Assembly: GCA_001783065.1 (NCBI GenBank)
Contig: MFQN01000004.1
Span: forward strand, 22,836-86,835
Source: Candidatus Magasanikbacteria bacterium RIFCSPLOWO2_12_FULL_43_12
GTDB lineage: Bacteria; Patescibacteriota; Patescibacteriia; Magasanikbacterales; UBA922
Direction of reading: 5' to 3'
Length of the DNA stretch: 64,000 nucleotides
Positions 4,110-26,528 of the stretch are shown here, one piece after another. Each line of letters opens with the position of its first letter. Within the stretch, counting starts at the first letter, position 1. The notes below the pieces were generated by a model. The model worked only from the letters and a program-made list of their open reading frames with translations. It had not been told where the DNA came from and searched no databases. The position numbers were made by a program, and so were the translations under genes.

Positions 4110-4124
4110 ACGAATGGTGATCTT

Positions 4125-4609
4125 GCGTCTCCCCCCTACGAAGGGGAGAACAAGGGGGGTGTTCGCCAATCGCGGCTCACTTGTGTGGTGTTTGAAAATC
4201 GATAATATAATTTTCTATTTCTACTAATATACTTTCTAAATCCTCCCTCACCCGCTCGTCATCAAACCGCAAAACCGTTAAACCCAAATCTTCTATATAA
4301 TCCACCCGTCTCCTGTCATACGCTTCTTTCCCCTCGTGGCTGATGCCGTCTATTTCAATAACTAATTTTAATTCAAAACAAAAAAAGTCGGCAATGAAGT
4401 TACCGATTGGCTTCTGTCGCATAAACTTGTAACCTTGAAGGCGTCTATTTCTTAAACAATGCCACAACATCCGTTCAGCATAAGTGCGGCCTTTGCGTCG
4501 CAATTTACTGGCATATGATTTTAACTTGGGGTTGTATTGTATTTTCATGGTAGTGGTTTTGACACGAGCGAACACCCCCTCTGTCTCCCCCTTCGTAGGG
4601 GGAGGACGC
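4125..4609. mobile_element. inverted-repeat-flanked DUF559 cassette 1
   Basis: ~42-bp GC-rich arms 4125-4166 and 4568-4609 are imperfect reverse complements enclosing the ORF; mobility is inferred. Confidence 0.6.
4177..4548 (-). CDS. DUF559 (Vsr-like) endonuclease domain protein
   Basis: 'AERMLW', 'KFMRQKPIGNFIADF', 'LVIEIDGISH', 'DRRR', 'GLTVLRF'; start moved to MKIQYNPK. Confidence 0.9.
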   Translation of the reverse strand: MKIQYNPKLKSYASKLRRKGRTYAERMLWHCLRNRRLQGYKFMRQKPIGNFIADFFCFELKLVIEIDGISHEGKEAYDRRRVDYIEDLGLTVLRFDDERVREDLESILVEIENYIIDFQTPHK

Positions 4610-4700
4610 GCGCTCACTATTTATATTTTTAAATAGACTTTCAATTGACAAAAGAAAAAAAATTTAATATAATAGTCGCGTTTTATTAAGGAAGCATTTG

Positions 4701-4775
4701 GGTGACCATAGTTTAACGGTAAAACTGCGGATTGTGGATCCGCTATCGAGGGTTCAACTCCCTCTGGTCACCCCA
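4701..4775 (+). tRNA. tRNA-His (GTG)
   Basis: G-1, GTGACCA/TGGTCAC acceptor, loop TTGTGGA, encoded CCA. Confidence 0.93.
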
Positions 4776-4785
4776 ATGCTTCTTT

Positions 4786-5529
4786 TTATTCCCTTATATC
4801 CTTATACTCCTTCGTAAACGGTCTCTTGAAGACTAAAATCCAAAAAAAATTAAGGGCGTAGCGATAGCCGGTGATGAAAGCGCCTTCTTTGGCTAAACGC
4901 CTGCCGGAGCTTAAAATCGGCAGACTGAAAGTAAATTTAACCGGACCGACCGCGCGAATCCTGCGCGCGATGTCCGTATCTTCGCCGTAAAAACTTATGC
5001 TGGTGTCAAAACCGCCTATTTTTTCCAAAGCCGTTCTCCTAACGATAAAATTTCCGCCCTGCAACATCGCGCCCTTTTTAAAAAAAATCTCATTAAAAAT
5101 ATAAATCAAATAACCCAAACCATAAAAAATTTTTGTCTGGATTTTTGTCCACCGCGGCAAATCATAAAATACGCATGGGCCGGATAGAGCCGCCAAGTTT
5201 GGATTACCAGCAAATTCAGTGAAAACTTTTTTTAACCAACCTCCTGGCATTATATTATCCGCGTCGATGTTGGCGATCAAATCTCCCTTAGACGCCAAAA
5301 AACCCGCTTGGCGGGCAAACACTATTCCTTTTTTATTTTCATCAACAACTTTCACGCGTGGAAACGATAGCGCGATTTCTTTTGTCTTGTCAGTGCTCGC
5401 GTTGTTGACAACAATAATTTCCGCTTCGTAAAAATTATTTTTAATCTCTTTCAAAACCGATTCCAAACACCGGCCGATATTGGCTTCTTCATTGTGGGCG
5501 GGAATGATAAACGAAATAGCAAAACCCAT
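4786..5529 (-). CDS. glycosyltransferase family 2
   Basis: 'IIPAHNEE', 'VVNNASTDKT', 'IDAD', 'GGFD', 'GEDTD'. Confidence 0.92.
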   Translation of the reverse strand: MGFAISFIIPAHNEEANIGRCLESVLKEIKNNFYEAEIIVVNNASTDKTKEIALSFPRVKVVDENKKGIVFARQAGFLASKGDLIANIDADNIMPGGWLKKVFTEFAGNPNLAALSGPCVFYDLPRWTKIQTKIFYGLGYLIYIFNEIFFKKGAMLQGGNFIVRRTALEKIGGFDTSISFYGEDTDIARRIRAVGPVKFTFSLPILSSGRRLAKEGAFITGYRYALNFFWILVFKRPFTKEYKDIRE

Positions 5530-5537
5530 AACCCAGC

Positions 5538-5601
5538 TAACAAAACACAGAGAATTGGCGATTTGGCTCGTTGTGTTTTGTTAATTGTGTTATGAGTTCT
5601 G
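5538..5601. repeat. gene-less inverted-repeat element, AACACA/TGTGTT family
   Basis: taacaaaacacag ... tgtgttttgttaattgtgtt; same arms as the four-helix cassette at 6.1-6.6 kb. Confidence 0.7.
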
Positions 5602-5605
5602 AAAC

Positions 5606-6103
5606 TCACCAAATCGTCCCTTCGTTTATCGTCTCGTTCAGTGGATCGGAATTATAATATTGGCTCGTATCTTCGTCCACTGTAAATTCCGAACCGGAAT
5701 AGAGCGGTGTCGTCGGCTTGTTGTATTGTTGCGCCTTCAGCAAATATTTGTTGACAAATAAAGTTATGCTGAACGCGCTGAAAGTTATCAGCAGGCCGAT
5801 GACGCAATAACGAATTACTTTCTTCCCCTTTTCAACTTTTTCTTCCTCGCCGGCGGATAAAGTAATCAAAAAACCGGCGTAAACCATATAGAGTGTAAAC
5901 AAAACTCCCACTGTTCCAAGCATCACCTGAACCACCAGCGCCGCCACCTCTCTCGGGTCGCGAGCGTTGCCATAGTTCGCGCCCTTTGTCCCCGCGGCGG
6001 ATTGCAATTGGGTTTGCAGGTCGGTGGTGTAGTCGGCGGATGCTGGAAGAGCTGGCAACACGAAGGCAGACAGAATGATGATTGTAAAAAATAGTTTATA
6101 CAT
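5606..6103 (-). CDS. TrbC/VirB2-like pilin
   Basis: Signal peptide, two TM segments around 'YAGF...SAGEEEKVEKGKK...IGL'. Confidence 0.8.
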   Translation of the reverse strand: MYKLFFTIIILSAFVLPALPASADYTTDLQTQLQSAAGTKGANYGNARDPREVAALVVQVMLGTVGVLFTLYMVYAGFLITLSAGEEEKVEKGKKVIRYCVIGLLITFSAFSITLFVNKYLLKAQQYNKPTTPLYSGSEFTVDEDTSQYYNSDPLNETINEGTIW

Positions 6104-6154
6104 GGATTTAAAACACATAACACAATTAACAAAACACAGAGAATTGACGGTGGA

Positions 6155-6530
6155 CTATTTTCCTGCTTCTTTGCTTTTCTCTAAGCCGTTTATCAGACTC
6201 CACAGCATCGCCCCCACTTCGTCAAGGAGGCCCATTGTCTCTTGGTACTCTTTCTGGTTTATCCACTCTCTCTTTTAAACAGAAAAATATTAAATATTTA
6301 CACTCCTTACAAGAACCATACGCGGTTTCAAAAAACTGTATCTTTACTCCTGTCTTAAACCGCGCATGTCCCTCAACAAAATTTAACATTATTGAAATTA
6401 TTGCTCTTCTCAACTGGCTGGTGATGCCATAAATCTCTTCACGGGGAAACTTTTTTGTTAAATCATATACCAACATTATCAAATCGTGCGCTTTCCTTTT
6501 AAAAATTACGCCCATCCCGTCATTTCCCAT
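6155..6530 (-). pseudogene. four-helix-bundle protein (23S-IVS/Avd-like family), frameshifted
   Basis: 'TKKFPREEIYGITSQLRRA...NFVEG...AYGSCKE'; the family-like C-terminus WINQKEYQETMGLLDEVGAMLWSLI is in another frame after the AG run at ~6266-6276; stop at 6155. Confidence 0.8.
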
Positions 6531-6610
6531 ATTTTATTTGTTGTGTGTTTTGTATTTTATCGCTCGTCGTGGTTGTGTTTTGTTAATTGTGTTTTGTGTT
6601 CTGAACAACA

Positions 6611-7027
6611 TCACTTCGCAACATCGCCACCCTCTGTCACCAGCGCCGGCAGACGCGAGCCGATAAACAATGTAATACTGTAGGAAAATAATATTATTAT
6701 CAACCCGATAATCGCCATTCTCATTATCTTTCCGCCTTTCTCGGCTTTTTCTTCCTCGCCATGAGAAGTGAAATAATTATACCCGCCGTAGAATATTAAA
6801 ATTGTAAAAACAATGCCGGTTACCGCGAGTATCATCCTTACCACCCCCATTATCGCCAAACGCGGATCAATTGCTTCGGAAAACTGCGCTGTCTCTGCCC
6901 CGGCTTTCACCTGCCCCATCACATTTTCAGTAAGGTCGGCGGAAACCGGCGCCAAACCAAAAATTAAACTCAAACCCAAAGCAAATAGGGCTGTTAAAAT
7001 TAATTTGTGTTTTAGGAAAAAATACAT
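6611..7027 (-). CDS. TrbC/VirB2-like pilin
   Basis: 'YGGYNYFTSHGEEEKAEKGGK...AIIGLIII'; start at MYFFLK (the ORF-track extension runs through a repeat). Confidence 0.8.
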   Translation of the reverse strand: MYFFLKHKLILTALFALGLSLIFGLAPVSADLTENVMGQVKAGAETAQFSEAIDPRLAIMGVVRMILAVTGIVFTILIFYGGYNYFTSHGEEEKAEKGGKIMRMAIIGLIIILFSYSITLFIGSRLPALVTEGGDVAK

Positions 7028-7036
7028 ATTATTTAA

Positions 7037-7130
7037 GTCATTGCGAGGAACGAAGCCGAAGCGTAGTGACGAAGCAATCCAGAACGATCGCGATGGATTG
7101 CTTCGTCGTCTGCGGACTCCTCGCAATGAC
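7037..7130. repeat. REP-like palindrome GTCATTGCGAG...CTCGCAATGAC
   Basis: Terminal 11-bp inverted repeat with internal gaagcaatcc/ggattgcttc pair. Confidence 0.85.
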
Positions 7131-7150
7131 AGAATGCGTAATCGCTTATA

Positions 7151-7741
7151 TTATTTAAAATCGCTCGCCGAACAAACAGCGCCCGTGGTTTTCGTAATCT
7201 CTTTTGGCGTCGCTTTACAACCCAAATAGCCTTCACATTTCGCTATACATACCTCCCAAGATTCAACAGAATAATCGCAGTCTTTACCGGTCTCCCAAGG
7301 ATCGTCGCCGACTTTTTCACACACCTGGCAACAAATCACTTCCTCTCCTTCATCTTCTCCAGTAACGTCCGTCAACCTTGGCACCACAAAAGTGGTAATG
7401 CTGTATGCTCCGACTAAAATTATAAAACCGATAATTGAAGAAATAATAATTTTTTGCGCTTTTTCCACCGGCTCTTCCTCGCCGCGAGCTGTCATCCACA
7501 GCCAGCCGGCATACACCATCAGGACTAAAAAAATCACGCCGGTAAAAGATAGTATTATCGCGATAATAGAACCGACTGTTTCCGCGAACGTAGTTTCCGT
7601 TGTGTTTGGATTATACCCGGCGTCTTTTGCCGCTTTCTGCGTCGCGCCACTGCCGAAATCTAAAGCAAACGCGCTTGACGCGGCGCTAAATAGTAACACT
7701 GATATCAGACAGAAAAATAAAATTTTGCGAATCTTTGGCAT
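7151..7741 (-). CDS. TrbC/VirB2-like pilin with Cys-rich C-terminal domain
   Basis: 'YAGWLWMTARGEEEPVEKAQK'; tail with 8 Cys. Confidence 0.8.
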   Translation of the reverse strand: MPKIRKILFFCLISVLLFSAASSAFALDFGSGATQKAAKDAGYNPNTTETTFAETVGSIIAIILSFTGVIFLVLMVYAGWLWMTARGEEEPVEKAQKIIISSIIGFIILVGAYSITTFVVPRLTDVTGEDEGEEVICCQVCEKVGDDPWETGKDCDYSVESWEVCIAKCEGYLGCKATPKEITKTTGAVCSASDFK

Positions 7742-7756
7742 AGCGGAGTTCACAGA

Positions 7757-8377
7757 TTCCCTCCTCGGAGGAGGGCGAGGGAGGTGTTCGCCAACCTTCG
7801 CGAACACACCCCCTGCCCCTCTCCGAGAGGGGAAGTTACGAGTTCCCTCCTCGGAGGAGGGCGAGGAAGGTGTTATCCCTCTTTATGATGTTTAATCCAA
7901 TCATTAATAACTTCCCACACACCTTCCATATGACACTTAACTTGGTTCTCGGTAAATCGTAAAAACTTTATATCATTGCTTTCTAAAAACTTTTGTCTTT
8001 GGTTGTCGTAATGAATTTTTCCATCATGACTTATGCCATCCACTTCAATTGCCAACATCAGTTCGGAACAAAAAAAGTCTACAATATAGCGATACAGCGG
8101 TTTTTGACGGTGAAATTTATAACCCTCCAATTGTTTGCCACTTAAGTATTTCCACAAAAGAATTTCGGCCAGTGTAGAATTTAAACGCAAATTTCTTGCC
8201 CGTTCTTTCAGTTTCGGATCGTAAGGAATAAATTTTTTTATCATATTTTTTACCCCAGCGAACACACCCCTTGCCCCTCTCCGAGAGGGGAAGTTACGAG
8301 TTCCCTCCTCGGAGGAGGGCGAGGGAGGTGTTCGCCAACCTTCGCGAACACACCCCCTGCCCCTCTCCGAGAGGGGA
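7757..8377. mobile_element. REP/BIME-like cluster enclosing DUF559 cassette 2
   Basis: Identical 77-bp units at 7757-7833 and 8301-8377, built from alternating inverted CCCTCCTCGGAGGAGGG / CCCCTCTCCGAGAGGGG hairpins. Confidence 0.65.
7873..8244 (-). CDS. DUF559 endonuclease domain protein
   Basis: 'STLAEILLW', 'KFHRQKP', 'YIVDF', 'LAIEVDGISH', 'FLRF'. Confidence 0.9.
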   Translation of the reverse strand: MIKKFIPYDPKLKERARNLRLNSTLAEILLWKYLSGKQLEGYKFHRQKPLYRYIVDFFCSELMLAIEVDGISHDGKIHYDNQRQKFLESNDIKFLRFTENQVKCHMEGVWEVINDWIKHHKEG

Positions 8378-8386
8378 GTTGTTGAA

Positions 8387-8968
8387 CTACTTACACTCGC
8401 TCGCCGGCTTCAGCCCAATATATTTATATTCCAAACTAAGACATTCTTTTTCTGTCATTGGTTTTTGGGGACATTCTGTCTTGAACCAACCGGACATCCC
8501 TGTTTTGCACAATTTGCAACACTCAACTTTCGTTCCTCCGACTTCTTCGCTCGCGCCGCTGCCGCCGGTTTTGTTCAAAATCTTCGGCACAACAAAAGTT
8601 GTAATACTGTACGCGGCGACGACAATGACCATGCCAATGACCGCGGCGATAATTATTTCATGCGCTTTGCTAATCTGCTCTTCCTCGCCGCGCGCTGTCA
8701 TCCATAAATAACCGGCGTAAACCATTAAAATCAAAAACACCACGCCGAGCATTGATAACACGGCTTGAATCAAAAAACCGATGTTGCCGGAAAAGGTCGT
8801 TTCTGTCGCCGTGTCATATTTAGCTTGAGTTGCCGCGGTGTCCGCTTTTTCCCAGCCCAATAAACTTTGGGCTTTGACATTAGCGGTTGGAAAGAAAGAT
8901 AAAAACAAAACCGAACAAAAAAGAACAAAATTGAACGAAATTAGATTAATTCTTTCTACTCTGTTCAT
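8387..8968 (-). CDS. TrbC/VirB2-like pilin with Cys-rich C-terminal domain
   Basis: 'YAGYLWMTARGEEEQISKA'; tail CCKLC...C...C...C. Confidence 0.8.
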   Translation of the reverse strand: MNRVERINLISFNFVLFCSVLFLSFFPTANVKAQSLLGWEKADTAATQAKYDTATETTFSGNIGFLIQAVLSMLGVVFLILMVYAGYLWMTARGEEEQISKAHEIIIAAVIGMVIVVAAYSITTFVVPKILNKTGGSGASEEVGGTKVECCKLCKTGMSGWFKTECPQKPMTEKECLSLEYKYIGLKPASECK

Positions 8969-8982
8969 AACTAAATTATATC

Positions 8983-9618
8983 TCACTTTATCCATTTACA
9001 CACATTCTTACTACACATTTCTTCCGTATAAACAGAAGCGCAGATATCAGCCACCGTACTTACTTCAACCTCACATTCAACGTCTATGGAACTCCAATCA
9101 CAGACCGCTTCCCCGTCTACCTTCTGTTGGTCGCATTGTTCCGAGTCACTCTCTTTAATTTTTCCGCAATAATCCGCCGCTTTTGTCGCATCAAATGCGC
9201 ACCCAGCTTTTATTGATGTCTCATTTGTCTGTTCTGTGCTACCCCCGCCCAACTTCCCGCTGACAAAAGTCGTAATCGCGTAAGCGCTGGCGACGATGAA
9301 AAATCCGATTAGCGCCGCGGTGATTATTTTCTGCGCTTTGTCAACTTGTTCCTGTTCGCCGCGAGCCGTCATCCATAAATAACCGGCGTAAACCATTAAG
9401 ACCAAAAATATCATGCCGACCAAAGTTATCGCCGCGCCGATGCCAACGCCGATAACATCTTCGGGGTTCTCATAAACATTCGCTTTGGCGCCGTCTGACC
9501 CGGCGACTTTGTCAAATTTGCTCGCCGCGTCTTTCAACCCTTGCGCGTTAACCGCGACGGTTGTTAAAACCAAACCGGCCGAGATAATGAGAATTGTGGT
9601 GAGAATGGATTTTTTCAT
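8983..9618 (-). CDS. TrbC/VirB2-like pilin with Cys-rich C-terminal domain
   Basis: 'YAGYLWMTARGEQEQVDKAQK'; tail with 8 Cys. Confidence 0.8.
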   Translation of the reverse strand: MKKSILTTILIISAGLVLTTVAVNAQGLKDAASKFDKVAGSDGAKANVYENPEDVIGVGIGAAITLVGMIFLVLMVYAGYLWMTARGEQEQVDKAQKIITAALIGFFIVASAYAITTFVSGKLGGGSTEQTNETSIKAGCAFDATKAADYCGKIKESDSEQCDQQKVDGEAVCDWSSIDVECEVEVSTVADICASVYTEEMCSKNVCKWIK

Positions 9619-9659
9619 ACTCTGTTTTTTTACGCAAGCTGAACGTTAATCCGCTCGCC

Positions 9660-10245
9660 GAGACCTCATCCTTTGTCCTTCTCCTACGAGGAGAAGGAAA
9701 CCGCCCACTTCCTCTCTCCTCGTAGGAGAGGCGGGGTGAGGTCTCAACGGGCGTGTGTTAATTCCGCTATTTTTGTGTTAATAACTTTTAAGACTGTCTC
9801 TGCGTTATAAATGCAATCTTCATTCATTACTCTCATTATATTATATCCTTGTTTTTTAAGCCACGCTTCGCGCCGATTGTCATATTCAATTTGATCGTTA
9901 TGTATTCCACCGTCAACTTCAATTATTAACTTTAATCTGTGGCAGTAGAAATCAACCACAAAACCGCCGATACTTACTTGCCGTCTGAATTTGTAATTTA
10001 ATTCGCGATTCCGTAGTAATTGCCACAACGCATACTCCCCATCAGTAATATCCCGACGAAGCGACCGACGGCGGCGTTTGAGATAATCGCTTGGACGATT
10101 CCTGTCCCGAGGTTCGGTGGTTTTATTAGCTGGCATGTTCTATTTATGTCAGTTCCGATGAGACCTCATCCTTTGTCCTTCTCCTACGAGGAGAAGGAAA
10201 GTGATTGGAGACCCTCTCCTACCTCCCCCTACAAGGGGGAGGGCT
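9660..10245. mobile_element. repeat-flanked DUF559 cassette 3
   Basis: Perfect 41-bp direct repeat 9660-9700 / 10160-10200, with an inverted arm at 9709-9744. Confidence 0.6.
9744..10136 (-). CDS. DUF559 endonuclease domain protein
   Basis: 'TDGEYALW', 'KFRRQVSIGGFVVDFYC', 'IEVDGGIH', 'DNRREAWL'. Confidence 0.9.
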   Translation of the reverse strand: MPANKTTEPRDRNRPSDYLKRRRRSLRRDITDGEYALWQLLRNRELNYKFRRQVSIGGFVVDFYCHRLKLIIEVDGGIHNDQIEYDNRREAWLKKQGYNIMRVMNEDCIYNAETVLKVINTKIAELTHAR

Positions 10246-10270
10246 GCACAACTACCCCTCTCTCCCGCAA

Positions 10271-10933
10271 TTAATTCGTCTTTTTCCCTTCCGCCAGCGC
10301 CCAGCATTCGTCCGCGTCGGTGATGTTGTCATACCACGCGCCGTTATGCGACTCGCACAACTGATCTTCTTTGGTGCAGGTCTTAATATTTGTAACGCAA
10401 GTTTCCTGATCGGTTATTTCGCTATTCCACCAATGCGTGTTGCCAACATCCCAAAAACCGCCGACCGCTTCCACCTCATTCAAACAACACCCCAACGGCC
10501 CCTTCGGTTCAGCGGCAGGACCGCTTGTTGCCAGAGGGCCACCCCCTCCGCTTATCATCCTGCTCAAAACAAAATTCGTAATCGCGTAGGAGCCCACCAT
10601 AATAAACAAACCAATAATCGCTCCGATGATTATGTTTTGCGCTTTGGTTATTTGTTCTTCCTCGCCCCTTGCCATCAGCCAGGTGTAGCCACCGTAAAAT
10701 ATCAAGAGAAAAAATATAATGCCGCCGATACTGAACGCGGCTTTGGCGATTCTGCCTGCCAGCGGTTCAATATCAATCTCTTCAGCGCCGATTTTGGTGT
10801 TGGCGTCCGCCGCGAAGCCAGCGGCGTTTTGGGCAGTAAATTTTTCGGCAAAAACGGTTGATGCGGAAAATAAAAAAACAAAATATAACAAAATTGGACA
10901 AAATTTAACAAAATTTTTATTGGACAAAGACAT
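10271..10933 (-). CDS. TrbC/VirB2-like pilin with Cys-rich C-terminal domain
   Basis: 'YGGYTWLMARGEEEQITKAQ'; Cys/Trp-rich tail. Confidence 0.8.
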   Translation of the reverse strand: MSLSNKNFVKFCPILLYFVFLFSASTVFAEKFTAQNAAGFAADANTKIGAEEIDIEPLAGRIAKAAFSIGGIIFFLLIFYGGYTWLMARGEEEQITKAQNIIIGAIIGLFIMVGSYAITNFVLSRMISGGGGPLATSGPAAEPKGPLGCCLNEVEAVGGFWDVGNTHWWNSEITDQETCVTNIKTCTKEDQLCESHNGAWYDNITDADECWALAEGKKTN

Positions 10934-10944
10934 ATTTTTGCGTA

Positions 10945-11538
10945 TTACTCGTTACACGAACAGTGCGGACCGATTTTGGCTTCATCCTCTTCATGAAATT
11001 GACAAGTGCCTGATTTAGTCTCTGGGGAATCTGTAAGTGCCCCCCATGTAAAAGTACATGTTGAACCAGTCTGTTTGCCACCACAATCATTTTCATCAAG
11101 ACTCTCTTTAAATGGACAACAATTATTAGCTTTTGTGCATTCTACTGCGGTGTTGTTGTCGCCACCCCCCGACGATGCCGTTCCGGGACCAATACTCTTA
11201 AACACAAAATTTGTAATCGCGTAGGAGGCGAGGACAATGACAATGCCGATGATAGCGGCGGTAATAGTATCAAGCGCCTTGCTTTCCTGTTCCGAATTTC
11301 CGCGCGCGAGCATCCAAGTTAAACCGCCGTATAACATTAAGGCAAAAAACAAAACGCCTACCAGAGACAGGCCGGTGCCGAGTACACTGCCGATGAGGAC
11401 CGGGAGCTGTCCGGGGGCTGTTTTGTCCAACTTGGCCGCGCCAGCGGTTTCCTCAAGACCATATCCTGCCAAAACGATGGTTGGGGCGAAGATGAAAAGA
11501 CAGATGAGAAGAGAGAATAAAAATTTTTTGAAGGACAT
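10945..11538 (-). CDS. TrbC/VirB2-like pilin with Cys-rich C-terminal domain
   Basis: 'YGGLTWMLARGNSEQESKA'; tail with 8 Cys. Confidence 0.8.
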   Translation of the reverse strand: MSFKKFLFSLLICLFIFAPTIVLAGYGLEETAGAAKLDKTAPGQLPVLIGSVLGTGLSLVGVLFFALMLYGGLTWMLARGNSEQESKALDTITAAIIGIVIVLASYAITNFVFKSIGPGTASSGGGDNNTAVECTKANNCCPFKESLDENDCGGKQTGSTCTFTWGALTDSPETKSGTCQFHEEDEAKIGPHCSCNE

Positions 11539-11544
11539 ATTGTT

Positions 11545-12011
11545 AATTTTCAATTTTCAATTTCTAATTTTCAAACAATTTTTAATGAATTAATTTTTAA
11601 TTCCGCCGTTTTTGCGTAATGATGAAGAAATCTTATTGAATATCAAGGTCAGTTGATGTGCTTCGCTCCATAGCGGTCTTAATGTGGCTTTCAATTCTGT
11701 GTTTGTCGTTGCCAGCATCTCCAGCCAATACTTTGTTTCCTGAATTTCTTTGCGGCAGATAAAAATTTTATTTGCAAAATCTTTACGTGAGCTGGCCGCG
11801 TTCGCTTCGCAATAATTAGCCGCCACACTGGTTACTGATCTCCCTAATTGAATGATAATATTTCGATTTAAATCTTTAATTTTGATGGTGGCTAACAGTG
11901 CCATGACATCTTTACTGAATTTTTTAGTTCTTCCCTCCAAATCATACTGCATAATTGATTAATTCGGTAATTGAAAATTGTTTGAAAATTGGTAACTGAA
12001 AATTGAAAATT
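11545..12011. mobile_element. inverted-repeat-flanked four-helix-bundle cassette (AATTTTC family)
   Basis: 42-bp arms 11545-11586 and 11970-12011, 4 mismatches. Confidence 0.65.
11590..11952 (-). CDS. four-helix-bundle protein
   Basis: 'DLEGRT', 'QLGRSVTSVAANYCEA', 'SRKDFANK', 'KEIQETKYWL'. Confidence 0.9.
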   Translation of the reverse strand: MQYDLEGRTKKFSKDVMALLATIKIKDLNRNIIIQLGRSVTSVAANYCEANAASSRKDFANKIFICRKEIQETKYWLEMLATTNTELKATLRPLWSEAHQLTLIFNKISSSLRKNGGIKN

Positions 12012-12012
12012 C

Positions 12013-12420
12013 TCAGTACATATCTCCGGTCGTAGAATAATCATACCCGGTCGTGGCTTTGAACAACTGCGACATCACAAAGCGAGTAATGGAATAGGCG
12101 GCGAGGATAATAATCAGGCCAATAACCGCGGCGTAAAGAATCTTTTTCGCGTTGCCGGCTTTTTCCTCATCGCCTCCGGCTGTCATCCAGGTGAATCCGG
12201 CGTAAAGAACCAAAACAAGGGCGATGGTGCCGAGCAAGCCCAACGCCGCGCTGATAATCCGCGCGGTCGTGAACCGCACGTCTGTTTCGCCAAGCCCGGT
12301 TGCCTTGCCGTATTCCATACCGAGATAGGGGCCGGTTTCTTCAACTTGAGCATACGCGTTATTGCCCAAAAGGGTCAAGGCAAAAACCGCGAGAGTGATG
12401 ATGGGAAAAAGTTTTTTCAT
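12013..12420 (-). CDS. TrbC/VirB2-like pilin
   Basis: 'YAGFTWMTAGGDEEKAGNAKK...AAVIGLIIILAAY'. Confidence 0.85.
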   Translation of the reverse strand: MKKLFPIITLAVFALTLLGNNAYAQVEETGPYLGMEYGKATGLGETDVRFTTARIISAALGLLGTIALVLVLYAGFTWMTAGGDEEKAGNAKKILYAAVIGLIIILAAYSITRFVMSQLFKATTGYDYSTTGDMY

Positions 12421-12436
12421 AATAATTAAATATACC

Positions 12437-12538
12437 AATATACTAATGTACTAATGATACTAATGAATACGAATATTTAACATCAGGGGGTATTAGTATA
12501 CATTAGTATCATTAGTACTCTATTTGTATATTAGTATT
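12437..12538. repeat. mini inverted-repeat element, TACTAATG family (copy 1)
   Basis: tactaatgtactaatgatactaatg ... cattagtatcattagta; second copy at 46721-46824. Confidence 0.85.
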
Positions 12539-12635
12539 ATAAATTAATATTGTTACCGAGAAGCAGCCATCAAAACCGCCGATGGCCGCTTTAACGCTAA
12601 CAACATTCCCTCGAGGGGGTGTTGATTTTGTATGG

Positions 12636-13148
12636 TTAGTCTAGGGTTTCTTGAGTGGAATAATCTCCGCCTGTTGTGGCAGTATATAGCTGTTCAAGCA
12701 CGAACCGAGCTATCGCGTAAGCGCTCAAAATAATCGCCAGGCCCAAAATGCCGGCAAAAATGCGTTTTTTCGCTGTGCCAACTTTCTCATCATCGCCTCC
12801 GGCTGTCATCCATTCAAAACCGCCGACCAACATTATCACGACCGCGACGATACCCAGCAAACCCAACGCTACTCTAATAATGTTTGATATGGTTGTCCTC
12901 ACATCCTGCTTTCCCAAACCAGTATCTTTGACATAGTCTAAACCAACAATGAAATCGCCCTCTTCTTTACCGACATACACACATGCCTCATTCGTACAGC
13001 TGTACCCATCGCCGCAATCAGCATCTGTGGCACAAGTCTTTGCAAAGACCGTGGCTGGCGCGGACGGCAACAATATCAAACCAAACACAATAGAAGCGAG
13101 AACGGTCAGTAACACTTTATGCTTCGTAATTTTCGTTAACCAATACAT
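12636..13148 (-). CDS. TrbC/VirB2-like pilin with short N-terminal Cys module
   Basis: 'CATDADCGDGYSCTNEAC' before the core 'GGFEWMTAGGDDEKVGTAKK'. Confidence 0.85.
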   Translation of the reverse strand: MYWLTKITKHKVLLTVLASIVFGLILLPSAPATVFAKTCATDADCGDGYSCTNEACVYVGKEEGDFIVGLDYVKDTGLGKQDVRTTISNIIRVALGLLGIVAVVIMLVGGFEWMTAGGDDEKVGTAKKRIFAGILGLAIILSAYAIARFVLEQLYTATTGGDYSTQETLD

Positions 13149-13215
13149 ATTCTCACCCCCTTTCTTGTTTAAAATGATTCAAAACACAGAACACAATTAA
13201 CAGAACACATTGCGA

Positions 13216-13785
13216 TTACGACCCGTTCAGTTTTTCCTCCCATTTGCAGTTAGCGCCGCCGGATTGATTATTTTGTTCGCAGTCTTGCTGATCAATGGCT
13301 GCTTTAACGCTTGACTGATTGTTCTCCTCGCACAAACATTGATATTCTTTCTCTTTTTCCGGAACTTCCGACATTATTGGCGCAACAGGCGAAGGCCCTC
13401 CCGTGGCTCCAATCGCTTCCAAAACTAAATTCAGTATAGCATAAGCGCCAAAAATTAAAAATAGCCCGATTGCCGCCCACATCATTGTGTCTAAACCTTT
13501 CTTCACTTTTTCCGTATTGCCGGCTGAAGTAAGCCACAAAAACCCACCGTAAACAAAGGCCATTAAAACTAATGAGCCCACAACCCCCATCGCGCCCGCG
13601 ATGATATTGCCGATAAGCACCCGTATATCAGTCAATCCTTGCGGTTTTTCCGCGGTCCCACCCAAAGGATTGATTAGAGTAACGGTGGTTACGGGAGGAT
13701 CGGTTGGGCCGGCGGCAACAGTGATGGGAAATAGGACTGAAAATGAAAGTAAAATAATGATTAAAAATTTTTTCATATTAAACAT
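13216..13785 (-). CDS. TrbC/VirB2-like pilin with Cys-containing tail
   Basis: 'LINPLG', 'YGGFLWLTSAGNTEKVKKG'. Confidence 0.82.
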   Translation of the reverse strand: MFNMKKFLIIILLSFSVLFPITVAAGPTDPPVTTVTLINPLGGTAEKPQGLTDIRVLIGNIIAGAMGVVGSLVLMAFVYGGFLWLTSAGNTEKVKKGLDTMMWAAIGLFLIFGAYAILNLVLEAIGATGGPSPVAPIMSEVPEKEKEYQCLCEENNQSSVKAAIDQQDCEQNNQSGGANCKWEEKLNGS

Positions 13786-13789
13786 AGTA

Positions 13790-13963
13790 ACCTCCCCTCT
13801 CGAAAAAGGGCGGGTTGTAAATTCCCTCCTCGGAGGAGGGCGCGGGAGGTGTTCGTCAACACTCGCGAACACACCCCCTGCCCCTCTCCGAGAGGGGAGG
13901 TTACGATTGTTGTGTTTATTTTCGTAGTTCGTAATTTCGTATTCTTTTCGTATGTTCGCACAT
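13790..13963. repeat. GC-rich REP-like pair plus a solo ACGAA-family arm
   Basis: The ~13822-13898 unit resembles the 77-bp unit at 7757; 13920-13963 is an ACGAA-family arm. Confidence 0.8.
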
Positions 13964-15048
13964 CACTTTATCCCTCTAAACTCCGTATTCACATTCAAAA
14001 TTTCCAGCATCAAATCAATCGCCGCGTAAGCGACCATGGCGACCACGAGTCCGAGCGCGGCCGCGATCATTGTTTTCTTCCCGGTCTCCACCATTTCCGC
14101 GTTGCCCATAGAGACAATCATCTTGAAACCGCCATAAACGAAAAACGCGAATGCGAATGTGCCTAAAATCGCGAACATGCCGCTGGCGAAATTTATTATT
14201 AATTCCAATAAATTATTCACACTCCGGCAAGTCCCGGAAAACGCGCAGTCAGGCAAAGCGCCAGCATAGTCCTTCGGTTTTCCGTACTGGTTTTCTATCC
14301 AAGCGTCAACGGTGGAGGTGGTCTGCACCGGCGAAACGCCGGTGACGGAAAAATATATACTTCCATCAAGAGTTTGTGATTCTACTCCAGCGACAGGAAC
14401 AGATGCCTTTACTTTCAATTCATAAACTTTTGTTATCAGTTGTTCCGTTGATGTGTCCCAAACAATCTTTGCTTTTCCGCTTCCATCTTCATTTTTTAGC
14501 TCCGCGCTTAATTCCTCGCAATTAACGCATTTTATCTCAATTTCTTCTTTGGTGCCGACGGCCTCAATCTCCGCTGTGCCAATTTTCCCTTCTGTAACTG
14601 GGATCGGATTGCTTTTACTTCCTACATTTGTATTCCACTTCAAATTATACCATTTCACCCAGTCATACATTGTTGCTCCGTTAGTATCTGTGTAAGTTAC
14701 CGCATGATACAACTGACATTTTGGCGTGTCAGCTGTAACGCATACTTTTTTTTGATCAACCGCAAACTGTAAAAGATTTTCACAATCCTCTGTTTTTAAA
14801 AATTTGATAGTCTCATCAACATCCTTAAACGATATCTCTTCGGCCTCGGTTTCACCCAGCCCAATCTCCAATTCCTCCTCTGTATAATAACATCCTCCAT
14901 CTGAAGTCTGTTGAGAATATTTGCAATAACACTTATCACTATACGTCAAAAAAGCCGCGTTTTCTGAAGCATAAACATTTTGTACGTACACCAACACAAT
15001 CGCTAAACCAGCAATGATAGTGATTAGATATTTAATCTGATTCCGCAT
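13963..15048 (-). CDS. pilin-domain protein with large N-terminal Cys-containing extracellular region
   Basis: C-terminal 'YGGFKMIVSMGNAEMVETGKK...AAALGL' core preceded by CxxxGxC. Confidence 0.78.
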   Translation of the reverse strand: MRNQIKYLITIIAGLAIVLVYVQNVYASENAAFLTYSDKCYCKYSQQTSDGGCYYTEEELEIGLGETEAEEISFKDVDETIKFLKTEDCENLLQFAVDQKKVCVTADTPKCQLYHAVTYTDTNGATMYDWVKWYNLKWNTNVGSKSNPIPVTEGKIGTAEIEAVGTKEEIEIKCVNCEELSAELKNEDGSGKAKIVWDTSTEQLITKVYELKVKASVPVAGVESQTLDGSIYFSVTGVSPVQTTSTVDAWIENQYGKPKDYAGALPDCAFSGTCRSVNNLLELIINFASGMFAILGTFAFAFFVYGGFKMIVSMGNAEMVETGKKTMIAAALGLVVAMVAYAAIDLMLEILNVNTEFRGIK

Positions 15049-15057
15049 ACTATAAAC

Positions 15058-16431: not shown

Positions 16432-16438
16432 ATTAATT

Positions 16439-16966
16439 ATGTGCGAACTTACGAAAAGAGTACGAAATTACGAACTACGAAAACTTGCTTTTTATTCAAT
16501 ACTCGTTAATCACTCTTTTTATAACCACGCCGCTGTGGGTAAAACAGGCGACGATGGCCAGCTTCAAATTCAATGCCACCAAATACTGTTTTGTTTGCGC
16601 TATCACTTGCGCCGACACAAACTGACCTCTCTTTAACTCTAAAACAATTTTATCATCAATCAAAAAATCTAAATAATATTTCCCTACCATGCTATCAAAG
16701 CACTTCAACGGCACATAATATTGCTCTTCAAATTTTAACGCTTCTTTTGTCAAACCGGCAGCCACGCCTTTCTGATAATAACTTTCCCTGTGTCCGCCGC
16801 CAAGTTGTTTAAACACCTCTATCAAAACTCCATTAATTTTAAAACTCAATTCCGGATACAGCAAGTCTTTCCTGCGCACAACATATTCCCTCCCCTGATA
16901 TGTCATAAATTTTCATTCTAAATTTCGTAGTTCGTAATTTCGTACTCTTTTCGTATGTTCGCACAT
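16439..16966. mobile_element. inverted-repeat-flanked GxxExxY cassette (ACGAA family)
   Basis: 44-bp arms 16439-16482 and 16923-16966 differ at one position. Confidence 0.7.
16496..16906 (-). CDS. GxxExxY protein (PD-(D/E)xK-like)
   Basis: 'LGGGHRESYYQ', 'YLDFLIDDKIVLELK', 'AQTKQYL'. Confidence 0.9.
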   Translation of the reverse strand: MTYQGREYVVRRKDLLYPELSFKINGVLIEVFKQLGGGHRESYYQKGVAAGLTKEALKFEEQYYVPLKCFDSMVGKYYLDFLIDDKIVLELKRGQFVSAQVIAQTKQYLVALNLKLAIVACFTHSGVVIKRVINEY

Positions 16967-16988
16967 TCCATAGTTCGCACATCCCACA

Positions 16989-17651
16989 TTACTCTACTGC
17001 AGAAAAGATGAACGATACTATCGTATAACTCGCGAAAATAACGAACAAACCGAGCGTGGCCCAGACGACGATGTTTTTCGCCTGCGTGGATCTTTCCGCG
17101 TTTCCGCCGGCCAGCATCCAAAGCACTCCGGCGTAGGCGAATAGCGCCAAAGCGATACTACCCATCAATCCCATCGCGACTTTGATAATATTGCCCAAAA
17201 CATTCTTTATATCAGTGTCCTCTAATGTATTTAGACCACTAACTGGTGGAATGTCCAATGCGGGCGCGGCATCAGAATCTTCGGCTGTATCTGTTTTTGT
17301 TATATTCCCCTCCCATTTGCAATTAAAATTCTCGCCATCTTTTTCTTGTAAAGGCAAGCAGCCAATCTCTGTTGTCTCTATGCTGAAACCTCCGCCTTTT
17401 TCACCATCACAATTACAGGCGGCTGTTTTTTCTTCTCCTGATGACCATTCACACTCATAACCAATATTACTGTCCGTCTCCGCGCAACCTTCCTCGTCAG
17501 CCGACGATTCCATGGTAGTCTTGCCGCCATCGCTGTCGGTGATTGTGCAAAAACACGTGCCATTATCCGCTAACGCTGTGTTTAATGAAAAAAACAAAAG
17601 ACCTGACGCTAAAAATATAAATAACAGTGAAAATAAAAACTTATTCTTCAT
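16989..17651 (-). CDS. TrbC/VirB2-like pilin with N-terminal Cys-rich repeats
   Basis: Two CxC...C...CxW modules; core 'YAGVLWMLAGGNAERSTQAK'. Confidence 0.8.
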   Translation of the reverse strand: MKNKFLFSLLFIFLASGLLFFSLNTALADNGTCFCTITDSDGGKTTMESSADEEGCAETDSNIGYECEWSSGEEKTAACNCDGEKGGGFSIETTEIGCLPLQEKDGENFNCKWEGNITKTDTAEDSDAAPALDIPPVSGLNTLEDTDIKNVLGNIIKVAMGLMGSIALALFAYAGVLWMLAGGNAERSTQAKNIVVWATLGLFVIFASYTIVSFIFSAVE

Positions 17652-18478: not shown

Positions 18479-18527
18479 ATACCATTATTCTACCAAAAAT
18501 TAAAAATTTTCACCAGCATCTAATTCA

Positions 18528-18609
18528 TAACTCATAACACAATTAACATAACACAACGGACCCGAACGCCAATCCTCTGTGTTTTGTTAATTGTGTTTTG
18601 TGTTCTGTT
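18528..18609. repeat. gene-less AACACA/TGTGTT-family inverted repeat
   Basis: ataacacaattaacataacaca ... tgtgttttgttaattgtgtttt; further copies at 13180-13210, 22648-22730 and 32436-32469. Confidence 0.75.
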
Positions 18610-20003: not shown

Positions 20004-20012
20004 AGTGTGCAG

Positions 20013-20143
20013 ATGTGCGAACATACGAAAAGGATACGAAATTACGAACTACGAACAGCGAATTGGGGTAAAAAATAAAAATATATATATCATCATGATA
20101 TTTCGTAGTTCGTAATTTCGTAATTGTTCGTAAGTTCGCACAT
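20013..20143. repeat. gene-less ACGAA-family inverted repeat
   Basis: Arms 20013-20055 and 20101-20143; solo arm at 20770-20812. Confidence 0.85.
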
Positions 20144-20146
20144 AAC

Positions 20147-20767: not shown

Positions 20768-20814
20768 ATTTTCGTAGTTCGTAGTTTCGTAATTGTTCGT
20801 AAGTTCGCACATAA

Positions 20815-22608: not shown

Positions 22609-22796
22609 CTTACGGTTTGATTTGAATATATTATATCATAAAAGAAAGACAGAACACAGAACCCAGTTAACAAAACACAACGAATCTCATCGTTAGTTCT
22701 ATGTGTCATGCTAATTGTGTTCTGTGTTTTGATGGCGACCTTGACTTTTCTCCATAAATCCACCATACTACACCAACTTAATCTTTAACACACTCT

Positions 22797-24071: not shown

Positions 24072-24089
24072 GGTTTTTAAACTCACCAA

Positions 24090-24200
24090 CGAACACCTCC
24101 CTCGCCCTCCTCCGAGGAGGGAAATTATAAACTCCCCTCTCGAAGATGGGTGAAGAAATTTACAACCTCCCCTCTCGGAGAGGGGCAGGGGGTGTGTTCG
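24090..24200. repeat. GC-rich REP-like cluster (DUF559-associated family)
   Basis: cgaacacctccctcgccctcctccgaggaggg ... cccctctcggagaggggcagggggtgtgttcg. Confidence 0.8.
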
Positions 24201-24272
24201 TACGATGTTAGCTTGACTTTCTTGCCATATTATAATATACTCTACCCACACTTAATTTCCTCTTAAAATACT

Positions 24273-24539
24273 ATGCCAAACCTAAAAAACGCGAAAAAGG
24301 CGTTACGTCGGGCGAAAAAGCGGGCGCTCGGCAATGCCGTTGCCACAAAAATCTATAAAGACGCGGTGCGGATAATAAAGAAGGCGGTAGTTGCCGGAGA
24401 AACCGAACTGAAAGAAAAGCTCCGTTTAGCGCAAAAAGCGCTGGACAAGGCTGCTAAACGCGGAGTTATCAAAAAAAATACCGCCGGACGACGCTTCTCT
24501 CGCCTCATGGCGCAAATCAACAAAGTTGCAAAAAAATAA
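24273..24539 (+). CDS. rpsT: 30S ribosomal protein S20
   Basis: 'MPNLKNAKKALR', 'LDKAAKRGVIKKNTAGRR'. Confidence 0.95.
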   Translation: MPNLKNAKKALRRAKKRALGNAVATKIYKDAVRIIKKAVVAGETELKEKLRLAQKALDKAAKRGVIKKNTAGRRFSRLMAQINKVAKK

Positions 24540-24590
24540 AAACGTAGTAAAATAAATCCCAGTTAAGACTGGGATTTATTATTTAATAAT

Positions 24591-25136
24591 ATGTCAGAAT
24601 TAAAAGAAAATTTTCTCTCCGAAGTGGTCCGCGGCGATTACCTGCCAAACGCGGTTGGGGTTCCTCTCTCTCATATTCAAGGATGTGTGGCTGACAATGC
24701 TTTGGAAGACATTCTTCTTGAAGATTGGACGCTCCCGATGTTTTATGAACAATACAAAAACGGCGGCGCTAAGGGTTGGTTGTTAAAAGGTTGGGTTGTA
24801 AAAAATTTACCTGGACAATTTGCGAAGGTGGTGGAAGTATCACCGAAAAATACAGAGGCTGATTGCTTAAAAATTGTTGAGGGGGTCCCGGAGTTGAAAA
24901 AATGCCTTGAATACGCCGACTATTTGCGGAATCTGTTTCAGCGCAAAATTGATAATATCCGCGGCAGATTATCAACAGAAACCAACGAATTGTTGGCTAA
25001 GGAGCTTGGTGGTTTGTTAAACGATTTTAACGAACTGCGCCAGACCACCCGTTTTGATCCGGAAAAAGATCCTGAATACGAAAAACAAAAAGAGACTATT
25101 GAAGCGCCCCCAGAACCGCCAACTGACCGAAGATAA
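24591..25136 (+). CDS. hypothetical protein
   Basis: 181-aa ORF filling the gap; no recognised motif. Confidence 0.5.
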   Translation: MSELKENFLSEVVRGDYLPNAVGVPLSHIQGCVADNALEDILLEDWTLPMFYEQYKNGGAKGWLLKGWVVKNLPGQFAKVVEVSPKNTEADCLKIVEGVPELKKCLEYADYLRNLFQRKIDNIRGRLSTETNELLAKELGGLLNDFNELRQTTRFDPEKDPEYEKQKETIEAPPEPPTDRR

Positions 25137-25138
25137 AC

Positions 25139-26185
25139 CTACGCCGTCCCCACAAAAACATCCAACAATAACGACTGGTCGCCTTGGCCGGTCTTTGTTT
25201 TTACATCTAAATCCAACAAACGCTGATAAACGGTTTTTAATTTAGCCAAAGAATATTTTTTAACGAACACCAAAGACTTTTTTACGACAAACGGATGCAG
25301 ATTGAGTTTTTTCGCCAGCTGTTCACTCGGTAGATTATCTTCGCGGTCGTATAAATCCCGCAGTTCCAACAAAATTCTAAATTGCCGCAGAAGCATCGCA
25401 AAAACAAACTGCGCGTCCTCCCCCAATCGGTACTGCTCGCGAATCATTTTATACGCCTCTTTACTTCTCCCTGCCACCACCGCGTCAACGAGGTTGAAAA
25501 TGCTATCGTCGGCTTTTTCGTCAAGAAACAATTGAACATCGGCAAGCTCAATTTCGCGCCCTGTCATCGCGAGCCCCGGCACAGGGGCGTGGCGATCCAG
25601 CCCGTCGCCACTGGATTGCTTCGTCGCTCGTTCCTCGCTCCTCGCAATGACATATGCTATCAGTTGGTTTATAAGCGAATTCAGTCTCCACATATCCCCG
25701 CCAACATTCCGCGCCAAATATTGCACCGCTTGCTGGTCAATCTTTCCACCCCGTTCTTTAACTTCCTGCGTTATCCAACTATTTAATTTCACCCCAACCA
25801 ACAAATCAAACTTCTGACAAAACTTTTCTTTCGCCAAACACTTGAATAAATTTTCGGCTTCTTTGCCTTTGAATTTATCAGCGCCTTCCCAAAAAACCAA
25901 TACGGTCGCGTCCGACAAACTCTTCTTTTCTATTTTTTCTTGAAGTCCCGCCAACAAATCCTTATTTTTTGATAATAATAAATTTTCCAAAATAACCATT
26001 CGCTTCTCCGCCAAAAACGGCGTGGCTAAAATCTGCTCCCAAATTTTTCCATCTTCCTCTTTTTGACAATCCAAAATAGCCGCGTTATATCCACCCGGAT
26101 CGCGGTCTTTCTTGAACTTTTCTATCATTTTTTTTAGTTGTTGCCGGCTCCGGAACGTATCCGCGCCGTAGAGGAATATGATCAT
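25139..26185 (-). CDS. holA: DNA polymerase III delta subunit (with in-frame repeat insertion)
   Basis: 'MIIFLYGAD', 'PFLAEKRMV', 'IFNLVDAV', 'LHPFVVKK', 'DVKTKTG'. Confidence 0.9.
   Translation of the reverse strand: MIIFLYGADTFRSRQQLKKMIEKFKKDRDPGGYNAAILDCQKEEDGKIWEQILATPFLAEKRMVILENLLLSKNKDLLAGLQEKIEKKSLSDATVLVFWEGADKFKGKEAENLFKCLAKEKFCQKFDLLVGVKLNSWITQEVKERGGKIDQQAVQYLARNVGGDMWRLNSLINQLIAYVIARSEERATKQSSGDGLDRHAPVPGLAMTGREIELADVQLFLDEKADDSIFNLVDAVVAGRSKEAYKMIREQYRLGEDAQFVFAMLLRQFRILLELRDLYDREDNLPSEQLAKKLNLHPFVVKKSLVFVKKYSLAKLKTVYQRLLDLDVKTKTGQGDQSLLLDVFVGTA
25563..25651. repeat. REP-like palindrome inside holA
   Basis: gtcatcgcgag...ggattgcttcgtcg...ctcgcaatgac; same family as 7037-7130. 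Confidence 0.85.
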
Positions 26186-26188
26186 AAT

Positions 26189-26528
26189 AGCCCACTAATT
26201 GAGCGGCCACTAATAAAACTAATTTGCCACCCTCTTAGATTTTATTCCGTTCTACGATCGTGTTTTCAACCACAAAATCAATAAAATACCTGCCCATCCG
26301 CCTGCCATTATACATCAATACGCATTTTTGCTCTTTTTTATACAACTTTTTTCTATCTAACAGTTCCATCTCGTATGCTCTTTGATAATATTTCTCTTGA
26401 TAACCAAAACCCAATCTATTACTGACATTAAAAGCTAAACCTACCAACTCATAGCTTAATTCCGGATACAAAAGATCACCCTCCTTATTCATATTGGTGG
26501 CAATTAGTGGTCGCTTAATTAGTGGGCT
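26189..26528. mobile_element. inverted-repeat-flanked GxxExxY cassette 2 (CACTAATT family)
   Basis: 26-bp arms 26189-26214 and 26503-26528, 2 mismatches; solo arms at 28493-28528 and 47323-47388. Confidence 0.6.
26235..26492 (-). pseudogene. truncated GxxExxY protein
   Basis: 'LGFGYQEKYYQ', 'FIDFVVENTIVE' then stop; lacks the C-terminal third seen in the 16496 paralogue. Confidence 0.75.

Follow-up and report, generated by a model that had tools for sequence, protein, structure and literature searches.

Small genes enclosed by their own repeats change places between operon junctions in a Magasanikbacteria genome and its congeners

A stretch of 64,000 nucleotides (the window) from Candidatus Magasanikbacteria bacterium RIFCSPLOWO2_12_FULL_43_12 (assembly GCA_001783065.1, contig MFQN01000004.1; C4:22836-86835 in our numbering) carries seven small genes, three of the DUF559 family, two encoding four-helix-bundle proteins and two encoding GxxExxY proteins, each lying as a cassette between arms of repeated sequence. 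Comparison with related genomes showed that such gene-plus-repeat units change places between operon junctions. We lean, with moderate confidence, towards regarding them as selfish units acting at the DNA level, which resemble REP/RAYT and Ssn/SRM in their working and are members of neither. The genome studied (G000) amounts to 1.05 Mb in 34 contigs and is 99.6% complete, and close relatives of its genes are found in Patescibacteria.

The first-pass annotation, made from the letters of the window, had placed the seven genes correctly and in the right families. Pfam assigned genes 4177, 7873 and 9744 to DUF559 (E 4e-31 to 6e-35), the four-helix-bundle genes to 23S_rRNA_IVP (E 4e-22 and 1e-12) and the GxxExxY genes to PDDEXK_3 (E 2e-20 and 7e-14). 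As it had also reported, six of the seven are co-oriented within minus-strand runs, the exception being 4177, which converges on an SPFH gene. Its description of inverted arms around every gene stood in general and gave way for 7873 and 9744, whose arms are direct copies of self-complementary units; on folding, cassette 9744 gave local hairpins and no arm-to-arm stem. Two genes are broken: four-helix gene 6155 has a frameshift in a GA run near 6265, which leaves an open reading frame (ORF) at 6222-6530, and GxxExxY gene 26235 has lost ~107 nt relative to an intact copy in the congener G002. Five of the seven cassettes sit in junctions of an array of pilin genes of the type IV secretion system type at 5.6-17.6 kb, and arms are ~3.5-fold enriched in 4-27 kb of the window. 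In the array itself (5606-17651), the 5' parts of the genes are conserved between congeners and the cysteine-rich 3' parts are divergent (49-90% identity). No Y1 transposase or reverse transcriptase (RT) was found in the window, as noted earlier, and Pfam found no DDE transposase domain in the seven cassettes; the absence did not extend to the rest of the genome, which has two Y1 genes (matches only on C5 and C6) and four RT matches at three loci (only on C6, C7 and C29).

Two congeners served for comparison, G001 (687 kb fetched, nearly all of it) and G002 (224 kb of about 800 kb); both are syntenic with the genome studied, with a median protein identity of 85%. In the pilin region almost every junction had another occupant in the congeners, and B, C and D cassettes (letters denote arm families) lay at different junctions there. 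Thus, the junction of DUF559 gene 7873 holds a C-type four-helix cassette in G002 and an empty doublet of arms in G001, that of DUF559 gene 9744 a GIY-YIG cassette in G001, and that of the four-helix C cassette a D-type GxxExxY cassette in G006. Upstream of holA, G001 reads a precise stop-T-ATG. The alignment of junctions indicated that cassettes are not fixed at orthologous sites, in keeping with the mobility that had been suspected. On a larger scale, among 244 co-oriented syntenic junctions shared by G000 and G001, 116 were occupied in the former, 71 in the latter and 61 in both, with the same family in 26 of these 61. With G002, 82 such junctions were available, of which 38 and 36 were occupied and 31 doubly so, 15 of them by the same family. 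This census rested on crude ORF calls and on an arm library drawn mostly from G000, and G001 occupancy is therefore under-counted. Cassette surroundings were also diverse, with 118 distinct downstream neighbours among 148 four-helix loci and 63 among 88 GxxExxY loci.

We then asked how tightly arms and genes go together. Loci were collected by similarity to proteins of this genome and scored under one scheme (inverted-arm score ≥30); partial matches and loci with a flank <200 nt were dropped, which left 176/202 four-helix, 109/134 GxxExxY and 87/118 DUF559 loci, viral ones being counted apart. Inverted arms surrounded 152/171 full-length cellular four-helix genes, 96/109 GxxExxY genes and 32/42 cellular DUF559 genes, as compared with 14 of 843 other ORFs of this genome, an association not due to chance. 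The genome contains matches to 7 DUF559, 7 four-helix, 5 GxxExxY, 3 GIY-YIG and 2 Y1 genes. Six of the four-helix genes are armed, each with its own repeat word; the seventh is armless and stands next to an RT on C29. Of the GxxExxY genes, three are armed on both sides, with a different word for each, and a fourth word is common to the remaining two, which are truncated by contig ends. SRM-like arms flank two GIY-YIG genes, and REP arms one Y1 gene.

What the earlier annotation had overlooked is that window and genome contain many further copies of the same arms with no gene attached. The library detected 414 arm copies from 22 of its 24 families, and none in a block-shuffled genome; most of these copies belong to gene-less doublets or are solo arms, squeezed in between the stop codon of one gene and the ATG of the following one; a seed search returned 138 inverted pairs genome-wide, 88 of them with a spacer <120 nt. 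Gene-less doublets (73) and solo arms (150) together outnumber cassettes roughly 10:1. The arms beside four-helix genes are arrays of heptads (7 was the best period for 240/304 arms, and 132/235 have 4-5 units), GxxExxY arms have periods of 7-11 with a mode of 8, and DUF559 arms are GC hairpins related to BoxC. Cassettes fit tightly between host genes, at a median 0.5-1 nt from the upstream stop and 3.5-11.5 nt from the downstream ATG, and are co-oriented with both neighbours at 103/135 four-helix and 60/78 GxxExxY loci (genome background, 530/825).

It had been proposed that each protein is paired with one repeat. This held for the four-helix and GxxExxY families, which have words of their own, and not for DUF559 at the sub-family level. 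Arm 5-mer similarity rose with protein identity, with a Mantel rho of 0.75 for four-helix (n=152) and 0.53 for GxxExxY (n=96), and none of 499 permutations was as high in either; without the dominant clade, rho was 0.32 and 0.28, respectively. At 45-60% protein identity arm likeness was 0.43 and 0.34, against 0.21 and 0.25 in coding windows and 0.11 in host flanks, with repetitiveness inflating it. Words of the C clade keep an AAT phase, and in the B clade 93% of units have C at position 3. Gene-less D copies matched the variant of the resident cassette in 19/22 cases in G000 and 11/13 in G001. Since related loci do not count as independent and arms move along with their gene, what the statistics show is a conserved pairing and not binding.

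The cassette genes are under purifying selection: intact ones gave ratios of non-synonymous to synonymous substitution (dN/dS) of 0.02-0.12 (8 pairs, one saturated), similar to the 0.07 of host genes. Alongside them we observed a decay series from cassette to internally deleted cassette, gene-less doublet and solo arm. Four-helix remnants lie between arms on C11, and spacers of B doublets keep both inner ends of the B cassette. In the F family, 9/13 doublets share one asymmetric spacer, found in both directions relative to host genes, and in 2 of these 9 the two arm types have exchanged sides about the spacer. Two F cassettes are ~96% alike at two sites. A DUF559 cassette occurs with the identical truncation at two sites, which implies copying in trans. 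Solo arms in co-oriented junctions showed both orientations (69 vs 81).

The proteins, judged by their motifs and folds, fit work on single-stranded DNA. DUF559 keeps an ExDGxxH site, and its profile matches the mobile-intron endonuclease 3r3p (E 5e-5). GxxExxY keeps D-ExK and QxxxY (predicted model pLDDT 92), and the predicted fold of gene D was nearest to Cas4, MGME1 and lambda exonuclease (Cas4 first, E 4e-4, TM 0.46-0.55); T7 endonuclease I, a candidate relative at E 0.1, was not upheld by the fold search, in which Cas4 ranked first. The four-helix profile matches the five-chain entries 2rld and 2gsc. Folds of the Vsr-like, GIY-YIG and PD-(D/E)XK kinds are used by homing endonucleases, and spaced repeats are recognised by the rings of TRAP. 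In Caulobacter, a DUF559 protein provokes an SOS response in vivo and was read as a repair enzyme, a different role (PMC12907096).

If the cassettes are selfish units, it is likely that each protein binds the single-stranded DNA of its cognate repeat and in this way spreads the cassette together with gene-less arm copies. The nucleases, that is, DUF559 (Vsr-like), GxxExxY (Cas4-like) and GIY-YIG (Ssn), would nick at or near their own repeat, and repair or recombination would copy the unit into a stop-to-start gap, the one place where a dense genome would put up with it. The four-helix pentamer might grip the 4-5 heptads of an arm and borrow a nuclease from the host or a neighbour. Co-orientation would arise because cassettes are read from the host operon transcript. 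New families could enter by transformation, and ComEC is present in the genome.

Several observations weigh against this reading. Joint occupancy of junctions is far above chance (61/71 vs about 34 expected; odds ratios 13 for G001 and 35 for G002), and this same-junction occupancy is not explained by selfish insertion alone. In DUF559 protein and arm were not correlated (rho 0.01, 222/499 permutations as high), only 8/45 viral DUF559 loci have arms, and the trans test gave no signal for family C (18/40 and 6/10). The Mantel result is inflated by co-inheritance of gene and arms, among loci that are kin and were gathered by similarity. For several abundant families (P, R and T in G000; V in G001, which is 83% complete) the assembly contains no intact cognate gene, and several G001 cassettes have just 1-2 copies of their own arm. 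Thirty filled/empty pairs read by eye showed no consistent target duplication, ~80% DNA identity being too divergent to resolve one, and in the contigs from 8 DNA runs no joint spoke cleanly for excision, those present at repeats being too short-sided to inform on excision or inversion. Binding, nicking, excision and insertion were none of them directly observed, and to our knowledge the four-helix protein has no catalytic activity.

The excess of shared junctions would fit host regulation at the RNA level. There, the protein would bind its single-stranded repeat in mRNA by the start codons and control translation or stability of the genes marked in this way; families would replace each other, and the host would keep some repeat at junctions needing one. 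Nearness of the arms to the downstream ATG, occupation of almost half of the co-oriented junctions (the same ones in congeners even with a different family) and purifying selection on the cassette genes all agree with it. Moreover, Avd, a homolog of the four-helix protein, binds RNA (10.1101/2023.10.23.563531), and the same idea has been proposed for TAACTGA heptamers of Beggiatoa (PMC4679880). However, solo arms point both ways in co-oriented junctions, cassette genes are often broken (2/7 in the window), one family gives way to another between congeners, at many occupied junctions the congener has a plain stop-T-ATG, and the nuclease sites of GxxExxY and DUF559 are intact. We judged this explanation unlikely.

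Another possibility was processing like that of 23S rRNA intervening sequences (IVSs): arms would pair in the operon transcript, RNase III would cut out gene or spacer, and the cassette would be tolerated or tune stoichiometry. Arms can pair into 28-52 bp stems in 6/7 cassettes, RNase III is encoded in the genome, and 23S rRNA IVSs that RNase III cleaves can contain four-helix ORFs (PMC4990558). A stem on mRNA, which the first-pass annotation had considered, would be expected to leave its mark, yet the mRNA strand showed no excess of G·U over A·C mismatches in a comparison without positive control (149/154 in four-helix, 120 loci; 58/65 in GxxExxY, 85 loci; 41/51 in DUF559, 29 loci), which argues against an IVS-like RNA stem. 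Of 135 four-helix loci, none was without protein-coding neighbours on both sides, with no Rfam search made. Left and right arms keep conserved differences, solo arms exceed doublets, and arm words differ by clade, a property that a simple stem would not call for. On these data an RNA-level stem is not supported, and we hold this reading to be rather improbable, although such processing may occur as a side effect.

Passive hitch-hiking seemed more improbable still. Here the arms would be recombination hot spots, and cassettes would move only within larger transformation tracts, for instance those carrying pilin 3' ends, the proteins being uninvolved. It is true that 32/414 arms and 7 of the genome's cassettes fall in the 2% of the genome around the pilin array, that pilin 3' halves diverge between congeners, that ComEC is present and that at the ycjD site of Escherichia coli the gene is replaced by a multi-gene island instead of leaving an empty site. 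Moves to unrelated junctions, clade-specific words and the match of gene-less D copies to the resident cassette would all be left unexplained. A programmed switch in which inverted arms flip the enclosed gene is, in our judgement, very unlikely. In its favour, predicted inversion targets include an excess of DUF559 genes (odds ratio 14; PMC9881135), arm types are swapped in the two F doublets mentioned above and a tyrosine recombinase lies at 2210-3175. Against gene inversion, also raised earlier, stands the predominant co-orientation with both neighbours, and in synteny and conservation the recombinase resembles a housekeeping Xer.

Selfish gene-plus-repeat units have close parallels among known systems. 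As in REP/RAYT (PMC3116915), one gene is flanked by its cognate repeat, parallel groups coexist in a genome, and gene-less inverted doublets with shared spacers are spread across extragenic space. One true RAYT/REP unit is present in the genome studied; unlike it, the seven proteins are not HUH/Y1 but DUF559, 23S_rRNA_IVP and PDDEXK_3, the arms of four-helix and GxxExxY genes consist of 7-11 nt units in tandem instead of single hairpins, cassettes change junction between congeners, and about 22 families share 1 Mb. In Ssn/SRM (NTS; PMC11893778), single-domain GIY-YIG nucleases of single-stranded DNA are flanked by their own hairpin repeat. The likeness lies in a tiny nuclease bracketed by a scattered, homolog-specific repeat that clusters near pilin or surface genes, and the L family and GIY-YIG genes here fit the Ssn/SRM class and compete for the same junctions. 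The seven proteins are however not GIY-YIG (two other cassettes are), their folds being Vsr-like, Cas4-like PD-(D/E)XK and four-helix bundle, and Ssn/SRM was described for cleavage and transformation control, not cassette movement (PMC11893778).

The 23S rRNA IVS with an S23p ORF (PMC4990558) likewise has a four-helix-bundle ORF inside terminal inverted repeats. By contrast, our cassettes occupy mRNA operon junctions and not 23S, show no sign of RNA-stem selection and are accompanied by many copies without a gene; the rRNA IVS could itself be a cassette of this kind inserted into 23S. In diversity-generating retroelements (DGRs), Avd is a homologous pentameric barrel that binds nucleic acid (10.1101/2023.10.23.563531), whereas cassette genes have no adjoining RT and the sole four-helix gene beside one, on C29, has no arms. 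Insertion sequences and miniature inverted-repeat elements of the DDE type differ in their DDE domain, absent from the cassettes, and in their target duplications, of which none was consistent here at an identity (~80%) that does not resolve them.

Family A arms resemble BoxC/PIT/TM_ECO repeats (PMC4666352) in having a GC hairpin followed by a G-rich tract. The BoxC consensus had no strict match in the genome, 3 matches within 2 changes and 26 within 4 (shuffled, 0 within 4), with none within 4 changes in the window; family A arms are thus related to BoxC/TM_ECO without being members. PMC4666352 gives no mobility gene for BoxC, its main text names neither ycjD nor DUF559, and ycjD is flanked on one side only. 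GGGAATC in Xanthomonas (PMC4692102) and TAACTGA in Beggiatoaceae (PMC4679880) are unexplained intergenic heptamer arrays that, like ours, have four units, often form inverted doublets and lie a few bases from operon stop and start codons; the passages on these arrays draw no link to a four-helix gene.

Two predictions were set beforehand outside Patescibacteria, namely a four-helix gene beside GGGAATC arrays and ycjD beside BoxC. Xanthomonas has a 4-unit GGGAATC array 6 nt beyond the stop of accB, in overlap with the start of XCC0516 (PMC4692102, S2 Table A row 15), which is the solved four-helix pentamer of that genus. No downstream arm is listed in PMC4692102, and the chance level is about 6%, 242/4240 genes being repeat-associated. 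In E. coli, ycjD (DUF559) is followed by TM_ECO no. 9, 167 nt after its stop; an inverted copy overlaps the stop, and the 5' side has another hairpin. We regard both cases as suggestive. The ycjD gene is present in 3378/5426 E. coli genomes; it did not serve as a strain-level empty-site test, as three non-carriers examined hold an efflux island there and not an empty site. At this sapF-fabI junction (L544-L547), ycjD and the island (TetR regulator, MFS transporter) appear as alternative occupants. For the Beggiatoa heptamers, the supplement of PMC4679880 contained no four-helix, GxxExxY or DUF559 term.

These links lead to a broader and more tentative proposal, which we find possible though doubtful: that four-helix (S23p/Avd-type) pentamers and GxxExxY nucleases drive heptamer repeats without a transposase, that DUF559 does likewise for BoxC, and that rRNA IVSs are stray insertions. 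Each clade would recognise a word of 7-11 nt (AAT-phase, ANC-phase and others), 4-5 heptads would be held by a ring of five subunits, and the protein would mobilise its own gene and gene-less doublets into stop-start junctions.

If true, this would define a class of mobile units that need no transposase and that come with a natural library of word-specific single-strand binders. The cassettes also offer a candidate function for three very common uncharacterised families as well as a candidate cause for unexplained repeats of model bacteria, the Xanthomonas GGGAATC arrays and E. coli BoxC. As the XCC0516 pentamer is solved and ycjD is found in E. coli K-12, an uncultured host would no longer be needed for testing. 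Since about half of syntenic operon junctions in this 1-Mb genome carry repeats and most turn over between congeners, the units are a major source of intergenic change in bacteria of the candidate phyla radiation. Dozens of natural protein-word pairs could yield sequence-specific single-strand binders or nickases, as Ssn did. A literature search, with subscription journals and bioRxiv supplements outside its reach, found no published description of these cassettes; the present analysis adds a census of the whole genome, the evidence of turnover at junctions, statistics for the protein-arm pairing, a wobble test with a negative outcome and links to model organisms.

Table 1. Cassettes, gene-less doublets and solo arms located in the window (positions in window numbering)
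Feature	Position	Strand	Remark
Gene-less doublet, TACGAA (D) family	2095..2208		
Downstream arm, DUF559 cassette 1, BoxC-like GC hairpin (family A)	4104..4166	-	
DUF559 gene 1, 123 aa, intact	4177..4548	-	Same gene at another site in G002, dN/dS 0.11
Upstream arm, DUF559 cassette 1	4568..4630	-	
Gene-less doublet, AACACA (B) family	5520..5603		Spacer retains both inner ends of B cassette
Downstream arm, heptad array, family B	6107..6138	-	
Four-helix-bundle gene B, frameshifted near 6265	6155..6530	-	Intact relative at another G002 junction
Upstream arm, family B	6574..6605	-	
Gene-less doublet, SRM-like (L) family	7038..7131		Cognate genes are GIY-YIG cassettes elsewhere in genome
Downstream arm, DUF559 cassette 2, palindromic doublet	7757..7872	-	Direct copy of 8262-8377
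DUF559 gene 2, 123 aa	7873..8244	-	Junction in G002: four-helix cassette; in G001: empty doublet
Upstream arm, DUF559 cassette 2	8262..8377	-	
Downstream hairpin arm, DUF559 cassette 3	9660..9729	-	Inverted-arm part 9689-9729, direct-copy part 9660-9700
DUF559 gene 3, 130 aa	9744..10136	-	Junction in G001: GIY-YIG/SRM cassette
Upstream hairpin arm, DUF559 cassette 3	10160..10250	-	Inverted-arm part 10180-10220, direct-copy part 10160-10200
Downstream arm, AATTTTC heptads (family C)	11538..11595	-	Ends at ATG of next pilin gene
Four-helix-bundle gene C, 120 aa, intact	11590..11952	-	
Upstream arm, family C	11961..12018	-	Begins at stop of previous pilin gene
Gene-less doublet, TACTAAT (F) family	12419..12550		Cognate GxxExxY genes on C8, C32; in G001 here: D-type GxxExxY cassette
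Solo arm, family B	13178..13209		
Family A doublet and solo D arm, one junction	13781..13963		B four-helix gene here in G002
Downstream arm, family D	16439..16482	-	
GxxExxY gene D, 136 aa, PD-(D/E)XK site intact	16496..16906	-	D80, E90, K92, Q104, Y108 invariant
Upstream arm, family D	16923..16966	-	
Gene-less doublet, family B	18524..18607		
Gene-less doublet, family D	20013..20143		
Solo arm, family D, between stop and next ATG	20770..20812		
Gene-less doublet, family B	22650..22732		
Gene-less doublet, family A	24094..24197		
Downstream arm, CACTAAT (E) family	26184..26214	-	Ends at holA ATG
GxxExxY gene E, internal deletion	26235..26492	-	Intact in G002; precise empty site (stop-T-ATG) in G001
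Upstream arm, family E	26503..26533	-	
REP doublets	40595-40790 and 49162-49349		RAYT gene on contig C6

Some further features were noticed around the cassettes. Two genes (27187-28365 and 26530-27135) lie here between polA and the E cassette and are absent there in G001 and G002; the last codons of polA recur at the end of 26530-27135. In holA (25139-26185), an in-frame SRM-like repeat at 25563-25651 adds ~28 residues to DNA polymerase III delta; it is absent in G002, and G001 has a different, shorter hairpin at the same place. Past the stop of pilin gene 12636, a hairpin-rich stretch of ~85 nt (~12550-12630) is nearly unchanged in G001 while adjoining repeats turned over, and is possibly a structured RNA or a terminator. 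On C29:15617-16813, split RT matches beside the armless Avd-like gene are probably a broken DGR, further RT matches lying on C6 and C7. GxxExxY domains also occur in open frames of 280-870 aa (L148, L151, L253 and others), that is, fused to larger proteins, and at least two of these are armed.

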